47,532 nt of DNA from a virus. Taxonomy: Duplodnaviria; Heunggongvirae; Uroviricota; Caudoviricetes. Location: positions 1 through 47,532 of IMG/VR virus record IMGVR_UViG_2690316161_000023; one strand, given 5' to 3'. A model generated the notes under the pieces. That model ran no database searches. It was not told the origin of the DNA and saw nothing but the letters and a program-made list of their open reading frames with translations. Positions 3,536-47,121 of this stretch are shown here, piece after piece; within the stretch, counting starts at the first letter, position 1, and each line of letters opens with the position of its first letter. The position numbers and the translations under genes are program-made.

Positions 3536-4201
3536 TTAATATCCTATAGCTAAAAACATAGCGTCTGAGGTGTTTGTATTTACAGCAATATTCATCATGA
3601 CCTGAGCGGTAAATCCTGTATTGCTTACCCACTCGCATGAGTTAGTTATCTGAACCCATGTTAATTTGGTAGAAAAAACGCCCCAGCAATTAACAGGGAA
3701 CGGGACAGGGAAAGTCACTGGCACAGAATTTACTACACCGACAGTAGTCAAATTTGCGAGCGTCCGGCGAAACACCTGAATCTTAAGACCATCAGGACCT
3801 GTAAATAACAAATTATCGGTGTACTGCCCGCTTGCTCTTAAACCAAGGTTTTCGAGAGCCGTTTTCACTGTGCCGTCCGATTTGATATCGCCAAACGGAT
3901 TTTTGCGGCTCAGGTATTCAACAGCAAACCCCGATCCAAGCAATTCAACAAAACCGGGCAGATCACCATTATCAAGCACATCCCGTTGCGTTTTGTCACT
4001 TACAAACTGGGCCAGAGCTGCAGCAATAAAGCTGGCCTGTCGAATGGCTTTGTTCACCTGCGCACTGGATGCTTTCCCTGCTGTAAATCCGGATAAAAGC
4101 GCAGGCAACGCTTCCCATTCCTCCTGCGACATAACATTGGCATTTCGATCCGTTGCAAACGCTTTAAAGTCATTTTTCGCCATCAGAGTAATACTCCCCA
4201 T
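3536..4201 (-). CDS. Tail fibre protein, constant N-terminus fused to the Sv variable C-terminus (copy A)
   Basis: 221 aa; first ~120 aa identical to the 285-aa fibre at 7502-8359 and diverging after ...TALENLGL. Confidence 0.72.
   Translation of the reverse strand: MGSITLMAKNDFKAFATDRNANVMSQEEWEALPALLSGFTAGKASSAQVNKAIRQASFIAAALAQFVSDKTQRDVLDNGDLPGFVELLGSGFAVEYLSRKNPFGDIKSDGTVKTALENLGLRASGQYTDNLLFTGPDGLKIQVFRRTLANLTTVGVVNSVPVTFPVPFPVNCWGVFSTKLTWVQITNSCEWVSNTGFTAQVMMNIAVNTNTSDAMFLAIGY
3833..3858. other. hix/gix-like crossover site inside the tail fibre gene (copy A)
   Basis: tgctcttaaacc-aa-ggttttcgagag resembles the recalled Hin hixL site; lies exactly where constant and variable fibre sequence meet. 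Confidence 0.6.
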
Positions 4202-29959: not shown

Positions 29960-30114
29960 AATGACGCCCTCTGGTGGTTTCTAAACCATCACCACCGTCA
30001 GGTTCCTAATCATCGGGTGGTGAGACGTACAGGGTTAGGAACTACCGGGAAACCAACCGGCGAGCTTTTCAGCTCCCCCATACGCCCCACCATAATTCAG
30101 ATGTGCGCGTGCAT

Positions 30115-30232
30115 ACGACAATAAAAAACACGCTCGCGGCGTGTGTCTGTCGCGGTCTCTATCCGGGGTTCCTAATCCCGACGCCAGATTTTGCTGGCGC
30201 GTGAGGAATATAGCCCCGGATAACAGATTGAG
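30115..30232 (-). promoter_or_regulatory. Late promoter (pR'-like) with short leader and tR'-like terminator
   Basis: Minus strand TTGACT-18 nt-TATATT (about 30207-30226) just downstream of the Q-like gene; then hairpin acacgc-cgcgag-gcgtgt plus T-run (about 30121-30145). Confidence 0.55.
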
Positions 30233-32417: not shown

Positions 32418-32520
32418 CATAGCCTGCTTCTCCTTGACCTTTCGGTCCGTAAGAGGCAATCTATATGTGACGAGCATATAGGGGCCTCACTTCGATTTAT
32501 AGTCGGGTGGGGCTTTTATC
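32418..32520 (-). promoter_or_regulatory. hok 5' regulatory region (expected mok/sok-type control)
   Basis: By analogy with hok/sok loci; no promoter or antisense RNA was mapped here. Confidence 0.3.
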
Positions 32521-32824
32521 TATCTGCCGTTGGTGTTCATGCCCGAGGCAGACAGCCTCAAGCACCCGCAGCTATTCTACTTAACTATCCTTTTCCCGCA
32601 AATCGTTTTATCCTCAACGCAAATTTCACCAATCCTCCTCCAACTCGTGTCCCTTACCCTAAGGCTGTTTCCCTCTTTACACAGAAGATAATTAATGTAT
32701 TATTTTTTACAAACAATCAGTTAAGAGCTATCTGTGGGTGGAGTCGCCTTGCGGTAGCTTTTCCTTTTATGCATTGCACACATACATGCTCTAATATATT
32801 CCTATATGTTCAAAAGGACTTTTC

Positions 32825-33757
32825 ATGCACAGCGTTAACTTCTATTCATTCCGTGTGTTAACCCACAAGGGCAGCCGAACCAGCAAAAGACTAAACAACC
32901 TAGGTTTAAGCGATAAAAAAACAGCATATGAATTATTTGTTGAGTATTTTAATAGCTATAAAAACACACCTATTGAATTTGGTCTCTCGAAAACAAAGGT
33001 TTCTCTTGAACAACACACATCACTCACCTTTGATGCTCAAAACCAAGTAATATATGGATATGTAAAGGTTGGGAAATATGGTGAGAGCAGTGAAATAAAA
33101 GACGATAAACTTACTAAAATACGTTATACAACAACTATCAACGATGTAACTCTCAAACAGCGTTACATTTTAATATTTTTGCCAGACAATTTAGAAGAAG
33201 GGATTATAGCATTTCACGCTAATGACAATATTTCTGCTCGCAGCACACTCTCTGATGCATTACTAGACCACTTGAAAACAAAATATAAACTTGAAGCGAG
33301 AATCAATCCCCTTTGCCACAAAAAAATTCCCCAACACATCCTTGATTCAGAATTAAAACAAATAAAAGCCCAAGGTTACAAAGCACCAAAGGACATCACG
33401 GATTCATTCGGAAATAACAAAACAAACATCAAAACTGATTTGGTAATAAAAGCAAATCAAGGCGTATTTGGTAGTTTTAAAGACTTAAAAGACAAAAAAC
33501 TAGGAAATATAATAGAAATAATTGAAGATAAGTGTGACGCAATAAAAGTTAGTTTACAATTAGGCAATAGAACAGTCATTTTTAATTACGACACCATCTT
33601 AAGAAAAGGAATTTCTGCCGAATTAGATGATAACGACTTAAACATAAACGCATCTACAGGAATCCCCGATCTTAAAGCACTTCATGACACTGTTAAAATC
33701 ATTGCGAATGATATACTAAGTGAGTTACATAGTGGTAATGGGGGAGTAAAAATATGA
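32825..33757 (+). CDS. Unrecognised 310-aa protein, first gene of a low-GC two-gene module
   Basis: AT-rich ORF with RBS aaggac before the ATG; opposite strand to the surrounding early operon; overlaps the next gene by 4 bp. Confidence 0.6.
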   Translation: MHSVNFYSFRVLTHKGSRTSKRLNNLGLSDKKTAYELFVEYFNSYKNTPIEFGLSKTKVSLEQHTSLTFDAQNQVIYGYVKVGKYGESSEIKDDKLTKIRYTTTINDVTLKQRYILIFLPDNLEEGIIAFHANDNISARSTLSDALLDHLKTKYKLEARINPLCHKKIPQHILDSELKQIKAQGYKAPKDITDSFGNNKTNIKTDLVIKANQGVFGSFKDLKDKKLGNIIEIIEDKCDAIKVSLQLGNRTVIFNYDTILRKGISAELDDNDLNINASTGIPDLKALHDTVKIIANDILSELHSGNGGVKI

Positions 33758-34011
33758 ACAAGATTAACGTAATGAGTGTAATAAAAAAACATTACACAAC
33801 AATGTCGGATCAACGCGGAAATATTTTACTCGAAGACATCGCAATACACTTCATCATTCCTCTTACATTATCATTAATCATATGTTTTACCTATGGGATA
33901 ATGAAAACCTCTATCGCATCTGTTTTTGTTAACTTTGGAGCAATTACTACCGCACTATTAATGAGCGCGGTTATTATGATCTACGATCAAAAACAAAAAA
34001 ACTGTATTTAA
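33754..34011 (+). CDS. Small membrane protein (two predicted transmembrane helices), probably the 5' part of a longer frameshifted gene
   Basis: 85 aa with hydrophobic stretches IAIHFIIPLTLSLIICFTYGI and IASVFVNFGAITTALLMSAVIMIY; stop follows an A-run. Confidence 0.55.
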   Translation: MNKINVMSVIKKHYTTMSDQRGNILLEDIAIHFIIPLTLSLIICFTYGIMKTSIASVFVNFGAITTALLMSAVIMIYDQKQKNCI

Positions 34012-34309
34012 AATTTCAGACATTGAGGAAAACAACAAACCACGTTCAAATCTAATAATTTTAAATAATAATAAAACCGTATATGAGCAATTATGTCACA
34101 ATGTTTCTTATGCCATATTAACATCTGTAGCGTTAGTTATTTTTTCGGTTGCAATATATTTTCTCCCAGAACCCCCAAGTGAATTAAAAAAATGGTATTT
34201 CGCAACCCCTGCTTACATAATCAGTTATTTAGCATACTCATCCTTCTTTTTTACCGTAGTAACATTCTTGATGGTTATAAAAAGATTTAGCACAATATTA
34301 GATAGTTAA
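34001..34309 (+). other. Open +1-frame continuation encoding two more transmembrane helices, no start codon
   Basis: About 102 stop-free codons in AT-rich DNA (...YAILTSVALVIFSVAIYFL...YIISYLAYSSFFFTVVTFLMVI...); removing one A from the run at about 33995-34001 would fuse it to the 85-aa ORF. Confidence 0.5.
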
Positions 34310-34318
34310 ACAATGGAA

Positions 34319-34342
34319 CCGCCGCCCTTTCGGGCGGCTTCC
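34319..34342. repeat. GC-rich hairpin, copy 1
   Basis: gccgccc-tttc-gggcggc; near-identical hairpin at about 35384-35406. Confidence 0.5.
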
Positions 34343-34370
34343 TGATGTTCTAAGGGTGCAGAAATCCCTC

Positions 34371-34430
34371 CGGTTAAGGATTAAATTTTTAACAGAGCTA
34401 AATTTAATTATTCAGTTCTGGATTTTGTCG
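34371..34430. repeat. ~60-bp leader/promoter-like repeat, copy 1
   Basis: ccggttaaggattaaattttt...ttaattattcagttctggatt, about 80 percent identical to 35635-35700. Confidence 0.5.
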
Positions 34431-34821
34431 CCCTGCGTATCCGCGCTTTCGCGTTACGCTCAATCTGAATTAGCTTTTCTATATTTTTTCGCCTTTCCCG
34501 CTCCTCCTGACGCAAGAGCCTTACATCATCTGCCAGTCTGGTTTCTCTTTTCGCCACAGAGAGCATCCAGTCAAATGGTTCCACAACTGCACCGCAGATT
34601 TTACAGCGGACCTGACGCTCTTTTTCGTCAACCCGGACAGAGGCGTGATGACAATATGGTCTTTCCGATGGCTCATAAAGAAAATTAACCTGATTACGAG
34701 GGTCATCCTCTTTTACCGGAAATAAAACGATATTGCTTAACTCATCCTCTGGTTTTATTTCCATGCTCCTCTCCTTTGATGCGAATGCCAGCGGTAATTG
34801 AAGCCTGATAGCTAATTTCAC
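34408..34821 (-). CDS. Hypothetical protein with a putative zinc-ribbon
   Basis: 137-aa ORF with YCHH and CKIC motifs; likely true start at internal Met (MEIKPEDE) with RBS ggagaggag. Confidence 0.35.
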   Translation of the reverse strand: MKLAIRLQLPLAFASKERSMEIKPEDELSNIVLFPVKEDDPRNQVNFLYEPSERPYCHHASVRVDEKERQVRCKICGAVVEPFDWMLSVAKRETRLADDVRLLRQEERERRKNIEKLIQIERNAKARIRRATKSRTE

Positions 34822-34895
34822 TCACAGTACCGCCTCCTGAAAATTTAATGAACAATTCAATACGTTCTTTGGTAATAGTGGTCATGTGTTACTCC

Positions 34896-35159
34896 TTAAC
34901 CCGCAGTGCTTTCAACTGATGAGGGGAACAAAATCTTTTCATCAAACCCTGCATTCATATCATGAACAGCAACACACCAATCCATCGACGAACGATTATC
35001 AAGAGCCTCCATGATTTCATCCATGCGGCGTAGGTCATACAGGTAAATGCTTTTATCGCCAATGGTGTAAAAGCCAATTTTTTTCGGTGATGGACAGCGA
35101 TCAAGAACTTCCTGTAATTCGTTCAACCATGCCCGTTCTTTTTTTGTCAAAGTTGCCAT
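34896..35159 (-). CDS. Small hypothetical protein
   Basis: Start taken at internal Met MATLTKKERAW of the 117-aa ORF, which otherwise overlaps the preceding gene. Confidence 0.3.
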   Translation of the reverse strand: MATLTKKERAWLNELQEVLDRCPSPKKIGFYTIGDKSIYLYDLRRMDEIMEALDNRSSMDWCVAVHDMNAGFDEKILFPSSVESTAG

Positions 35160-35160
35160 A

Positions 35161-35379
35161 TCAGTTTTCCTTATACGGATTAATTTTATTGTGCAGTGTG
35201 TTGAATGACGCCCATACCACGTCGTTATACAATTCAGTAACTGGCTCAATTATTTTCCCGATTGCCCAGACAAAAATTAGAGGGGATATCGGTATCATCA
35301 ATACGATAAACAGAATGAGAAACAAAAATTCTGTCGCCCTACTTTTTTGCGGATATTCTTTTCTGAATAATGTAGTCAT
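35161..35379 (-). CDS. Small membrane protein
   Basis: 72 aa with hydrophobic stretch FLFLILFIVLMIPISPLIFVWAIG; begins just after the GC-rich hairpin. Confidence 0.35.
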   Translation of the reverse strand: MTTLFRKEYPQKSRATEFLFLILFIVLMIPISPLIFVWAIGKIIEPVTELYNDVVWASFNTLHNKINPYKEN

Positions 35380-35383
35380 TTCT

Positions 35384-35406
35384 TACCGCCCTTTCGGGCG
35401 GCCTCC
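35384..35406. repeat. GC-rich hairpin, copy 2
   Basis: ccgccc-tttc-gggcgg. Confidence 0.5.
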
Positions 35407-35411
35407 CGACA

Positions 35412-35624
35412 TTAATCGTTGTGGTAACTCATGGCTTCATTTGCAGCATCAACCGGATCAACCTCCCACCAGCAATAATTTGGTGCGTTTCCTTCAGGTG
35501 TCCACGGTTCCAATTCATTTTTTGCCACATTCTCGTCGCCAGTAATTTTAAAAATCTGCTCAGAGAATTTTTTCACCCACTCGTTATATTTTTCAGTGTT
35601 AATAATTTTCTGTGTATTTGACAT
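35412..35624 (-). CDS. Small hypothetical protein (cassette gene)
   Basis: 70-aa ORF with RBS ggaggt; flanked by repeat copy 2 upstream and hairpin copy 2 downstream. Confidence 0.4.
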   Translation of the reverse strand: MSNTQKIINTEKYNEWVKKFSEQIFKITGDENVAKNELEPWTPEGNAPNYCWWEVDPVDAANEAMSYHND

Positions 35625-35634
35625 AGATATACCT

Positions 35635-35700
35635 CCAGTTAAGGATTAAATTTTATTTACAGTGCTGAACTTAATTATTCAGATTTGGATTATGCTTTCT
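35635..35700. repeat. ~60-bp leader/promoter-like repeat, copy 2
   Basis: Matches 34371-34430. Confidence 0.5.
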
Positions 35701-35729
35701 CTTCACGAAGTTCCGATTGTTAATTTGGC

Positions 35730-36167
35730 TCACAACAGCACCTTCTGAAAATTACCCTGATAGAAAGCCAGTACACGCTGCATAGCTTCGCTCTTCCGGC
35801 ACTCGCTACAGATTATGTTTTGACGCCTGTCGTAGCGGCGTATTTCTCCGTCTGGTAATGGCCAGATAAGGTCAGGATCAACCACAGATGGTTTCTTCAG
35901 ATTTGCCCTTGAGAGTTTTTTGCGGGCGTTTTGCCAGTCCTTACGCGCCTGTTCAGACGGGAATAACCCGTAACCAGAGTTGTATACATCGCCACTGGCA
36001 ACCAGCTCTCTGGCAAGAGCACTCATCAGATATCTTGTCGCACCTGTCTTGGCTTCCAGTTGCCGTAACGTCTCGCGTCCGCTCTGGCGCACGAGTTCAA
36101 CAACCTGCCCCTTAATTTTTTCCCGCTCTTCTTGTGTAAATACTTTTGCCATAAGCGCCTCCGACAA
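35730..36167 (-). CDS. Hypothetical early-region protein
   Basis: 145-aa ORF. Confidence 0.3.
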   Translation of the reverse strand: MSEALMAKVFTQEEREKIKGQVVELVRQSGRETLRQLEAKTGATRYLMSALARELVASGDVYNSGYGLFPSEQARKDWQNARKKLSRANLKKPSVVDPDLIWPLPDGEIRRYDRRQNIICSECRKSEAMQRVLAFYQGNFQKVLL

Positions 36168-40209: not shown

Positions 40210-40617
40210 TCCATTATTTGGATTAATTCAATATTCTCGCTGTAGGGGTATAGCAGAAACCACCAAAGCCCGGAGGTGGTGAAATAAAACCGGGCACAAC
40301 ACGAAGGCGCATTTCCGATATCCATAAAGAGTCGGTCTTGTCTGTTAAATTTAAATGGTGGGAGTGCGCCTCCGGTTGTAAATAACGACATTGCTATGTG
40401 TAGTCTTTGGCGGCATCAGTTCTACTCCGTGGCTGCCCTGCCGCCCCTTTTTAAAGTGAATTTTGTGATGCGGTGAATGCGGCTAAGCGCACGCGGCACA
40501 GTTAAAAGCATCAGTGTTATGGGTGGATTATCCGGCGTTAATTGTTAACTGGTTAACGTCACCTGGAGGCACCAGGCACCGCATCGACAAAATTCATTTG
40601 TAAAAATGGAGATAATT

Positions 40618-44980: not shown

Positions 44981-45187
44981 ATGACAAAAATTATGAGATA
45001 TGACGATGTTAAACCATGTCCGTTTTGTGGTTGTCCATCTGTTACGGTGAAAGCAATTTCAGGATATTACCGGGCAAAATGCAACGGATGCGAATCCCGA
45101 ACTGGCTATGGTGGAAGTGAAAAAGAAGCACTCGAAAGATGGAATAAACGAACTACTGGAAATAATAATGGAGGTGTTCATGTATAA
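44981..45187 (+). CDS. ralR: Restriction alleviation protein (Lar/RalR-like)
   Basis: CPFCGC...CNGC zinc-ribbon-like motifs; start taken at MTKIMRY. Confidence 0.55.
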   Translation: MTKIMRYDDVKPCPFCGCPSVTVKAISGYYRAKCNGCESRTGYGGSEKEALERWNKRTTGNNNGGVHV

Positions 45188-45368
45188 AATTACTGCCACT
45201 ATTGAAAAGGAAGGTGGCACTCCTACTAACTGGACAAGATATTCAAAATCTAAATTAACGAAATCAGAATGCGAAAAAATGCTCTCAGGGAAAAAAGAAG
45301 CAGGCGTTTCCAGAGAGCAGAAAGTAAAGCTGATAAATTTTAATTGCGAGAAACTTCTGTCCTCGTGA
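45180..45368 (+). CDS. Small protein (YdaC/RcbA-like)
   Basis: 62 aa from ATG preceded by RBS ggaggtg. Confidence 0.4.
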   Translation: MYKITATIEKEGGTPTNWTRYSKSKLTKSECEKMLSGKKEAGVSREQKVKLINFNCEKLLSS

Positions 45369-46798: not shown

Positions 46799-46928
46799 TT
46801 TTAACGTAAATGGATTGTTAAATGTATTTTGGTTGTGATATAACCAAAAAAGACCGGAATACAGAAATTCGAGTAAATTTCGGGGAATTTCGGGAAGACG
46901 TTTGCAACTAATTGATTTTAAATACAAT

Positions 46929-46960
46929 TAAAAAAAGACCGAATACGATTCCTGTATTCG
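46929..46960. repeat. attL: core inside the sdsR terminator stem (core about 46937-46955)
   Basis: aaaaaaagaccgaatacgattcctgtattcgg, imperfect match to 1065-1098. Confidence 0.6.
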
Positions 46961-47032
46961 GTCCAGGGAAATGGCTCTTGGGAGAGAGCCGTGCGCTAAA
47001 AGTTGGCATTAATGCAGGCTTAGTTGCCTTGC
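46930..47032 (-). ncRNA. sdsR: sRNA SdsR (RyeB)
   Basis: Minus strand reads GCAAGGCAACTAAGCCTGCATTAATGCC...terminator hairpin and T-run, matching the recalled SdsR sequence. Confidence 0.65.
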
Positions 47033-47121
47033 CCTTTAAGAATAGATGACGACGCCAGGTTTTCCAGTTTGCGTGCAAAATGGTCAATAAAAAGCGTGGT
47101 GGTCATCAGCTGAAATGTTAA

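Follow-up and report, generated by a model that had tools for sequence, protein, structure and literature searches.

The lambdoid prophage catalogued as IMG/VR virus record IMGVR_UViG_2690316161_000023, whose full 47,532 nucleotides (nt) we refer to as the window, carries two copies of a unit made up of an AT-rich leader and a GC-rich hairpin, one of which encloses a gene of 70 amino acids (aa), referred to as the cargo, whereas the other is empty. The unit is a conserved intergenic element of ~100 nt that belongs to the small accessory-gene arrays of Escherichia and Shigella lambdoid prophages, and we judge that it probably acts there as a mosaic boundary sequence. This judgement applies to our explanation as a whole, which takes together the boundary sequence, the derivation of the empty allele and a hairpin-bridged ribosome-binding site (RBS).

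Read in the direction of transcription, along the minus strand, the unit opens with the closing codons and stop of the upstream gene (CTGAATAA), which run into an AT-rich leader of ~50 nt that ends in a first Shine-Dalgarno sequence (SD1, GGAGG). Either the 70-aa gene, a member of PHROG 4659, or ~20 nt of filler follows, and after it a second Shine-Dalgarno sequence (SD2, AGGAGG or GGGAGG), an 18-nt hairpin with a GAAA loop and a predicted energy of about −14 kcal/mol, 5–9 nt of spacer and the ATG of the following gene. The parts of the two units in the window, labelled A (occupied) and B (empty), are as follows.

35625..35682, minus strand: leader A, an AT-rich 5′ untranslated region running from CTGAATAA to the base before the ATG, with SD1 GGAGG at 35632–35636
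35412..35624, minus strand: the cargo, a 70-aa orphan gene of PHROG 4659
35385..35407, minus strand: SD2 and hairpin A, with SD2 GGGAGG at 35402–35407 and the hairpin at 35385–35402
35161..35379, minus strand: DUF4014 gene, whose only evident SD is located 5′ of hairpin A
34367..34415, minus strand: leader B, overlapping the last codons and stop of a 118-aa gene, with an orphan SD1 GGAGG at 34367–34371
34344..34366, minus strand: filler of the empty allele (GATTTCTGCACCCTTAGAACATC), without a start codon
34321..34343, minus strand: degenerate SD2 and hairpin B, with SD2 AGGAAG at 34338–34343 and the hairpin, a perfect 7-bp stem, at 34321–34338

Two copies of the leader and hairpin in the window

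All genes between 34.3 and 38 kb of the window lie on the minus strand, in the order DnaC-like replication gene, DUF1627, DUF977 and then a string of small genes, which agrees with the annotation of a 99%-identical E. coli prophage. This orientation had been overlooked in a first-pass annotation of the sequence, which had reported that an AT-rich repeat and a GC-rich hairpin each occur twice and had proposed an alignment of the two units as a check. That alignment bears the report out. Leader copies A (35625–35694) and B (34360–34427), both AT-rich and ~70 nt long, are ~83% identical over ~70 columns as counted from the pairwise alignment, with one 2-nt indel; the match is detected as two direct repeats, D2 (42 nt, 81%) and D4 (30 nt, 90%), with the indel between them. 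The hairpin repeat, D5 (35386–35409 vs 34322–34345), is 92% identical over 24 nt. Both repeated parts lie where they had been placed. The leader is ~70 nt long rather than the ~60 bp first given, and it starts at the last codons of the upstream gene (CTGAATAA). When up to three mismatches are allowed, a 23-nt core of the leader and a 19-nt stretch of the hairpin each occur exactly twice in the 47.5-kb window, against dinucleotide-shuffle expectations of 0.00 and 0.01, respectively, confirming that the repeat pair is real and non-random.

Between leader A and hairpin A lies the 70-aa open reading frame (ORF; 35412–35624, minus strand), with the strong RBS already noted in the first pass, a GGAGG 7 nt 5′ of its ATG, and with 9 nt separating its stop codon from the hairpin. 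Hairpin A has the form G-CCGCCC-GAAA-GGGCGG-U, with an energy of about −14 kcal/mol; its closing pair is a G·U that is valid in the minus-strand RNA only, and 5 nt further on is the ATG of the DUF4014 gene (35377–35379). In unit B, only 28 nt separate leader from hairpin, with no ORF and no start codon, and the closing pair of the hairpin is a perfect G-C.

The unit occurs in two states

Scanning IMG/VR with the 23-nt leader core gave at least 120 loci, and with the window and three related prophage or phage records added (L001–L003, L002 being phage ArgO145) the collection came to 133 leader copies. The number tabulated is ~135, reflecting 133 copies by the exact core and 136 nhmmer matches. 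Among the matches listed (the 133 leader copies), 89 are empty with a spacing of 28–29 nt, ~33 carry the same 70-aa gene, and the rest are contig ends or hairpin variants, the empty state being ~2.7 times commoner than the occupied one. In this same set the filler is near-identical across all 89 empty copies elsewhere, and nhmmer run over all loci never found leader and hairpin apart and returned two spacing classes only.

Targeted scans of IMG/VR gave no intermediate spacer lengths, and no hairpin without a leader was found in that database. The first-pass annotation had pictured a modular cassette with alternative cargo and had recommended looking for such cargo in related prophages. Dedicated scans of IMG/VR and the JGI metagenomes, for cargo other than PHROG 4659 or for any other continuation after the leader SD, returned unrelated chance matches only, and PHROG 4659 is the only cargo among the ~135 leader copies tabulated, which lends that picture no support.

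Both junctions in the window can be found in the opposite state. ArgO145 carries the 70-aa gene at the junction after the 118-aa gene, between the same leader and hairpin and followed by DUF7167, so the site that is empty in the window is occupied elsewhere; conversely, L023, L112 and L125–L127 are empty at the junction after DUF977, where the window has the gene. The unit is one entity with two alleles, occupied and empty, and both window junctions are polymorphic for cargo elsewhere, which upholds the original observation of one occupied and one empty unit. In L001 and L003, the same empty unit as in the window is followed, 6 nt past the hairpin, by the ATG of a DUF7167 gene.

PHROG 4659 itself has no Pfam match and no PADLOC match, and its PHROG entry carries no function. 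Its homologues make up only ~120 protein clusters, all from Escherichia or Shigella and all labelled hypothetical, and its AlphaFold2 model is unreliable (predicted local distance difference test score of 57).

The unit joins genes that reassort

We aligned the distinct empty copies, which comprise 62 extended haplotypes and 53 unit-level sequences, and observed that the unit is nearly invariant and that the flanks on both sides are unrelated between contexts. Conservation sets in abruptly at the last codons of the upstream gene (CTGAATAA) and ends at the hairpin, 5–9 nt before the next ATG. In the window, homology with thousands of E. coli prophages ends exactly at the outer edge of hairpin B (34322). 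In many combinations, the unit links eight or more upstream gene types with ten or more downstream ones: the 118-aa gene is joined through it to at least seven downstream genes, an Ea22-like gene to at least five, DUF977 to at least four and a fourth upstream gene to four. The gene pairs that flank the unit are many and unrelated, and they reassort freely.

The unit is present in 2394 of 5426 complete E. coli genomes (44%), at up to five copies per genome and ~3,250 E. coli copies in all, and across 185,579 species-representative genomes it was found in E. coli and Shigella only, plus one stray scaffold of a metagenome-assembled genome (MAG). This 3-kb scaffold (L133), binned to a Collinsella sp. 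MAG, has the exact leader core of E. coli prophages and is most likely a binning contaminant. Within the prophages, the unit is located both in the post-replication array, as in the window and L001, and in the integrase-proximal ea region, as in ArgO145. ArgO145 carries two units (2732–2863 and 3820–4130) in this integrase-proximal early-left region, one empty, after the Ea22-like gene and before DUF4014, and one occupied, after the 118-aa gene. Because the ArgO145 units are early-left and those of the window are downstream of the replication genes, unit-bearing genes move between two early operons. The first-pass annotation had overlooked both the placement of the hairpin 5–9 nt before the next start codon and the probable role of this widespread unit as a recombination joint.

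This reassortment pattern matches what has been suggested for lambdoid phages, whose module junctions carry short conserved boundary sequences, and on that ground we propose that the unit is such a sequence. Boundary sequences were proposed by Susskind & Botstein (1978) and, for HK620, by Clark et al. (2001), as cited in PMC3029335 and PMC2327257. According to PMC2327257, homologous recombination between short conserved sequences at the flanks accounts for some exchanges of modules, and about 30 bp is enough for Red- and RecA-dependent recombination. Acting as a short homologous boundary sequence, the unit would allow phage or host recombinases to swap the material on either side of it. As ~30 bp is enough for these recombinases, both the leader (~65 nt) and the segment from SD2 through the hairpin (~30 nt) would suffice for such swaps. 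A single crossover in the unit would exchange everything on one side, and crossovers in both flanks, leader and hairpin, would move cargo in or out.

The unit is like the lambdoid boundary or linker sequences in that it is short (~100 nt), conserved, non-coding, located at gene boundaries and present in a subset of related phages, that its flanking genes are non-homologous and reassort, and that its length exceeds the ~30-bp minimum for Red/RecA recombination. It is unlike them in that it also has translation signals and a nested gene that is present or absent, and in that it is very abundant, reaching the 44% of complete E. coli genomes given above.

A further mosaic joint is marked by a second pair of direct repeats in the window, D3 (39 nt, 77%). 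L003 carries a direct fusion of DUF977 to a 137-aa gene, with the crossover inside D3, and compared with L003 the window has a 908-nt insertion bounded by two D3 copies. A 47-aa ORF at 34742–34885 is partly built from sequence resembling the 3′ end of DUF977.

The hairpin and a possible split ribosome-binding site

In almost every copy that has a downstream gene on the same strand, 5–9 nt separate the hairpin from the start codon, and a perfect AGGAGG or GGGAGG lies just 5′ of the stem. Measured linearly, this SD2 is 22–25 nt from the ATG. The 18-nt hairpin (−14.4 kcal/mol) is present in every predicted fold and leaves a residual spacing between SD2 and the start of about 5–8 nt. Where the spacer after the 16-nt stem-loop core is at most 9 nt (5–8 nt after the closing U), it contains no GGAG or GAGG, and the two longer spacers (11 and 36 nt) each have a GGAG of their own. 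As a control, the DUF4014 homologue in 933W, which is without the hairpin, has AAAGGAG 7 nt before its start. Variants of the stem are valid in the sense RNA in 29 strand-specific cells vs 7 in the antisense RNA, and one stem change, in L020, is truly compensatory.

On these grounds, it is quite possible, if still short of probable, that the hairpin bridges a split RBS of the kind described for T4 genes 38 and 25. The hairpin would loop out 16–18 nt between SD2 and the start codon and so reduce the spacing from 22–25 nt to about 5–8 nt. In the T4 split RBSs, the spacing is reduced from 22 to 5 nt for gene 38 and from 27 to 11 nt for gene 25, and the intervening structure enhances initiation (Nivinskas 1999; Malys & Nivinskas 2009; reviewed in PMC3014915). 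The unit resembles the T4 genes in having a strong SD 22–25 nt from the start and an intervening stable predicted hairpin that would shorten this distance to about 5–8 nt, and in the absence of GGAG or GAGG from its short spacers. It would differ from them in that its hairpin appears to be a portable module serving many unrelated downstream genes, whereas the T4 cases concern one gene each, and it does differ in that its host phage is a temperate lambdoid phage rather than a T-even phage. The hairpin sequence gave no match in a literature search.

Origin of the empty form and points that weigh against the explanation

We consider the empty form to be probably a cargo-less derivative of single origin, which would have retained the orphan SD1 and spread by recombination at the unit. 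Essentially the same filler is seen in all empty copies, a uniformity that suggests that the form arose once and then spread. As the empty unit keeps the leader and SD1 of the cargo without a start codon, loss of the gene would leave it as it is seen.

Several observations count against our explanation in one part or another. Recombination at the unit is read from the reassortment pattern alone. The similarity of the filler to the first codons of the cargo (TCAAAT..CAG) has a p of about 0.02 for minority variants and 0.35 for the major variant; being nominally significant for the minority variants only, it does not separate deletion from insertion in the history of the empty form. RNAalifold reported no formal covariation over the 53 distinct empty units, within or beyond the hairpin, which we ascribe to the copies being too similar to one another. 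Several copies have an A·C mismatch in the stem. The AAGG in the loop and 3′ arm might serve as a weak conventional SD, and if it were used as one, the hairpin would inhibit translation rather than help it. Finally, the low diversity of the filler, an estimate biased by the way the loci were collected, could mean that the empty unit is functional in itself.

Alternative explanations

Of the competing accounts, the one that survives best, although we regard it as unlikely, treats the hairpin as an RNA-stability or processing element or a weak terminator, which would block exonucleases once the AU-rich leader had been cleaved or serve as a leaky bidirectional terminator beside a convergent gene. 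The stem is very stable and carries a GAAA loop, and the AU-rich, single-stranded leader upstream of it presumably resembles RNase E substrates, a likeness that we count towards processing. Moreover, in the window, L041, L066 and L099 the hairpin is found ~10 nt past the stop of a convergent module, with a closing pair that is there a perfect G-C. However, neither strand has a U-tract after the hairpin: the plus-strand tail reads UUCCUGAUGUUCU, and the minus-strand tail UAGUUAAAUG or GGUUCCAUUG. The scan for intrinsic terminators made no call there. The position of the hairpin 5–9 nt from the start with a perfect SD just 5′, seen in almost every same-strand copy, argues in the same direction, since a stability element needs no such geometry.

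That the empty unit is itself functional seems to us improbable. It would then be a short RNA, a cis-regulatory leader in which the CCCUC of the filler pairs with SD1 or SD2 by turns, or a standby or decoy ribosome site. The greater frequency of the empty form fits this account, as does its strict length of 28–29 nt without eroded intermediates; the alifold consensus pairs SD1 with CCCUC and the UCCU of the leader with SD2, and the predicted folds of the unit are more stable than those of shuffled controls (z = −2.3 to −3.7). The filler is about 5-fold less diverse than the synonymous sites upstream; picking the loci by an exact match to 23 nt of the leader biases this estimate. Against these points, no compensatory change was seen in any proposed pair, and the extra helices measure only 4–5 bp. 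No independent transcript is predicted, given the lack of a promoter or terminator, and no Rfam family matches.

The first-pass annotation had suggested specifically that the empty copy could encode a short RNA, and the searches made here do not favour this. A promoter scan found no sigma-70-like promoter in either leader on either strand, the hairpin is not followed by a U-tract, Rfam gave no match in 34200–35800 at the gathering threshold or at E ≤ 10, and there was neither covariation nor other conserved structure beyond the hairpin. With no promoter, intrinsic terminator or curated RNA-family match, the unit does not qualify as a small RNA (sRNA) gene. The unit does resemble prophage sRNAs such as DicF, IsrK and Pas in being short, conserved and non-coding, in ending in a GC-rich hairpin and in having multiple copies per genome, but it differs from them in its lack of an Rfam match, a promoter and a poly-U, and in its location inside an operon, directly before a start codon. 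The prophage Pas sRNAs all end in a stem-loop followed by poly-U and lie beside lysis genes, elsewhere in the prophage than the unit (bioRxiv 10.64898/2026.05.13.724894), and were ruled out on account of this different location and their poly-U terminators. A mini-ORF in the empty unit was also rejected: no ATG, GTG or TTG is found between SD1 and the downstream gene, and candidate ATT and CTG starts are either poorly spaced or lack conservation.

Other known classes of element fit no better. The morons of lambdoid phages are said, following Hendrix and co-workers, to be autonomous insertions of promoter, gene and terminator. The occupied unit is like a moron in holding a small accessory gene, function unassigned, that is present or absent between genes adjacent in related phages. 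It is unlike one in that no promoter or U-tract terminator was detected and in that the flanks of the unit persist when the gene is absent, and a moron was rejected for want of a promoter of its own in either leader on either strand and of a factor-independent terminator at the hairpin. An integron-type cassette (attC) was set aside on the basis of the hairpin stem of 7 bp only, the single type of cargo and the lack of an adjacent integrase in the window, L001, L002 and L003, and a lambda-type nut site on the basis that no boxA (CGCTCTTA-like) occurs in the 25 nt before the hairpin (CTGCACCCTCAGAACATCAGGAGG) and that the unit is deep in an operon and repeated at gene starts.

The weakest account, and in our view a very improbable one, is that PHROG 4659 and its flanks form an autonomous mobile cassette, a moron or site-specific insertion, that targets an ancestral empty unit: the clean presence or absence at identical flanks in at least two different junctions, the narrow orphan gene family and an HNH endonuclease gene about 1.3 kb downstream of the occupied unit in ArgO145 would suit it, but the empty site already has the gene's leader and an orphan SD1 without a start codon, as loss would leave, the lack of promoter and terminator makes it no classical moron, integrases, transposases and endonucleases are not consistent neighbours, the junctions show neither terminal inverted repeats nor target duplications, and there is only one cargo.

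Other features of the window

The genes and repeats that surround the two units are listed below.

34408..34767, minus strand: 118/119-aa zinc-ribbon-like gene, PHROG 1621, the most frequent upstream partner of the unit
35730..36167, minus strand: DUF977 (Ren-like) gene, upstream of unit A
34807..34845, minus strand: D3 repeat, copy 1, a second boundary-type repeat
35715..35753, minus strand: D3 repeat, copy 2, at the 3′ end of DUF977
32825..34310, plus strand: AT-rich module of two genes, convergent to the early operon, one encoding 310 aa and the other, 184 aa at full length, here truncated to 85 aa

Unit B faces the convergent AT-rich module (32825–34310, plus strand), which has 30–35% GC, runs towards the early operon and ends ~10 nt from hairpin B. 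Its two genes encode 310 aa (PHROG 15676) and 184 aa (PHROG 15250), and Pfam gives no significant match for it, only one sub-threshold hit to DUF6419, and PADLOC none at all; the module could represent a moron or an insertion of the defence type. The same module ends ~10 nt from the hairpin in L041, L066 and L099. These three loci have the 184-aa gene (33754–34310, plus strand, in the window) intact, whereas in the window a premature stop or frameshift leaves only 85 aa, and the window copy is probably a pseudogene. Unit B of the window has lost its downstream gene to this module, and its SD2 has decayed to AGGAAG.

Rfam matches elsewhere in the window include several known RNAs. Just left of the AT-rich module is a sok antisense RNA (32418–32567, minus strand; 103 bits), which implies a hok/sok-type toxin-antitoxin locus there. 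The C4 antisense RNA, its a1/b1 targets and isrK are at 30013–30213 on the minus strand, an immunity/antirepressor RNA module of the P1/P7 c4-ant type that here lies within a lambdoid prophage. DicF is at 40395–40446 (plus strand), and RalA, the antitoxin RNA of RalR, at 45186–45364 (minus strand). Near the right end, a ryeA/ryeB (SraC/SdsR) pair at 46926–47070 probably marks the chromosomal edge of the prophage.

Implications for lambdoid prophages

In our reading, the unit would unite the roles of a lambdoid boundary sequence and of a split RBS of the T4 type; it is ordinary in kind, and unusually clean and abundant. In annotation, the empty copy should be called neither an sRNA nor a gene. 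If the hairpin-bridged RBS is real, it would extend a mechanism of two T4 genes to a portable module used by many genes of temperate phages.

In a stronger version of our explanation, one that we do not expect to hold but would not dismiss, the unit would be a selected, portable adapter rather than a passive scar, which would provide a hairpin-bridged RBS for any downstream gene, perhaps a CCCUC leader that toggles between the two SDs, and a patch of homology for plugging accessory genes in and out. Were that so, nearly half of E. coli genomes would contain a natural standardised junction for gene shuffling.

Illegitimate recombination and exchange at short conserved boundary sequences have long been debated as sources of phage mosaicism, and few boundary sequences are well documented. 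With its abundance, its sharp limits, its dozens of natural reassortants and its built-in presence/absence marker, the unit would be a convenient test case for measuring recombination at joints of this kind.

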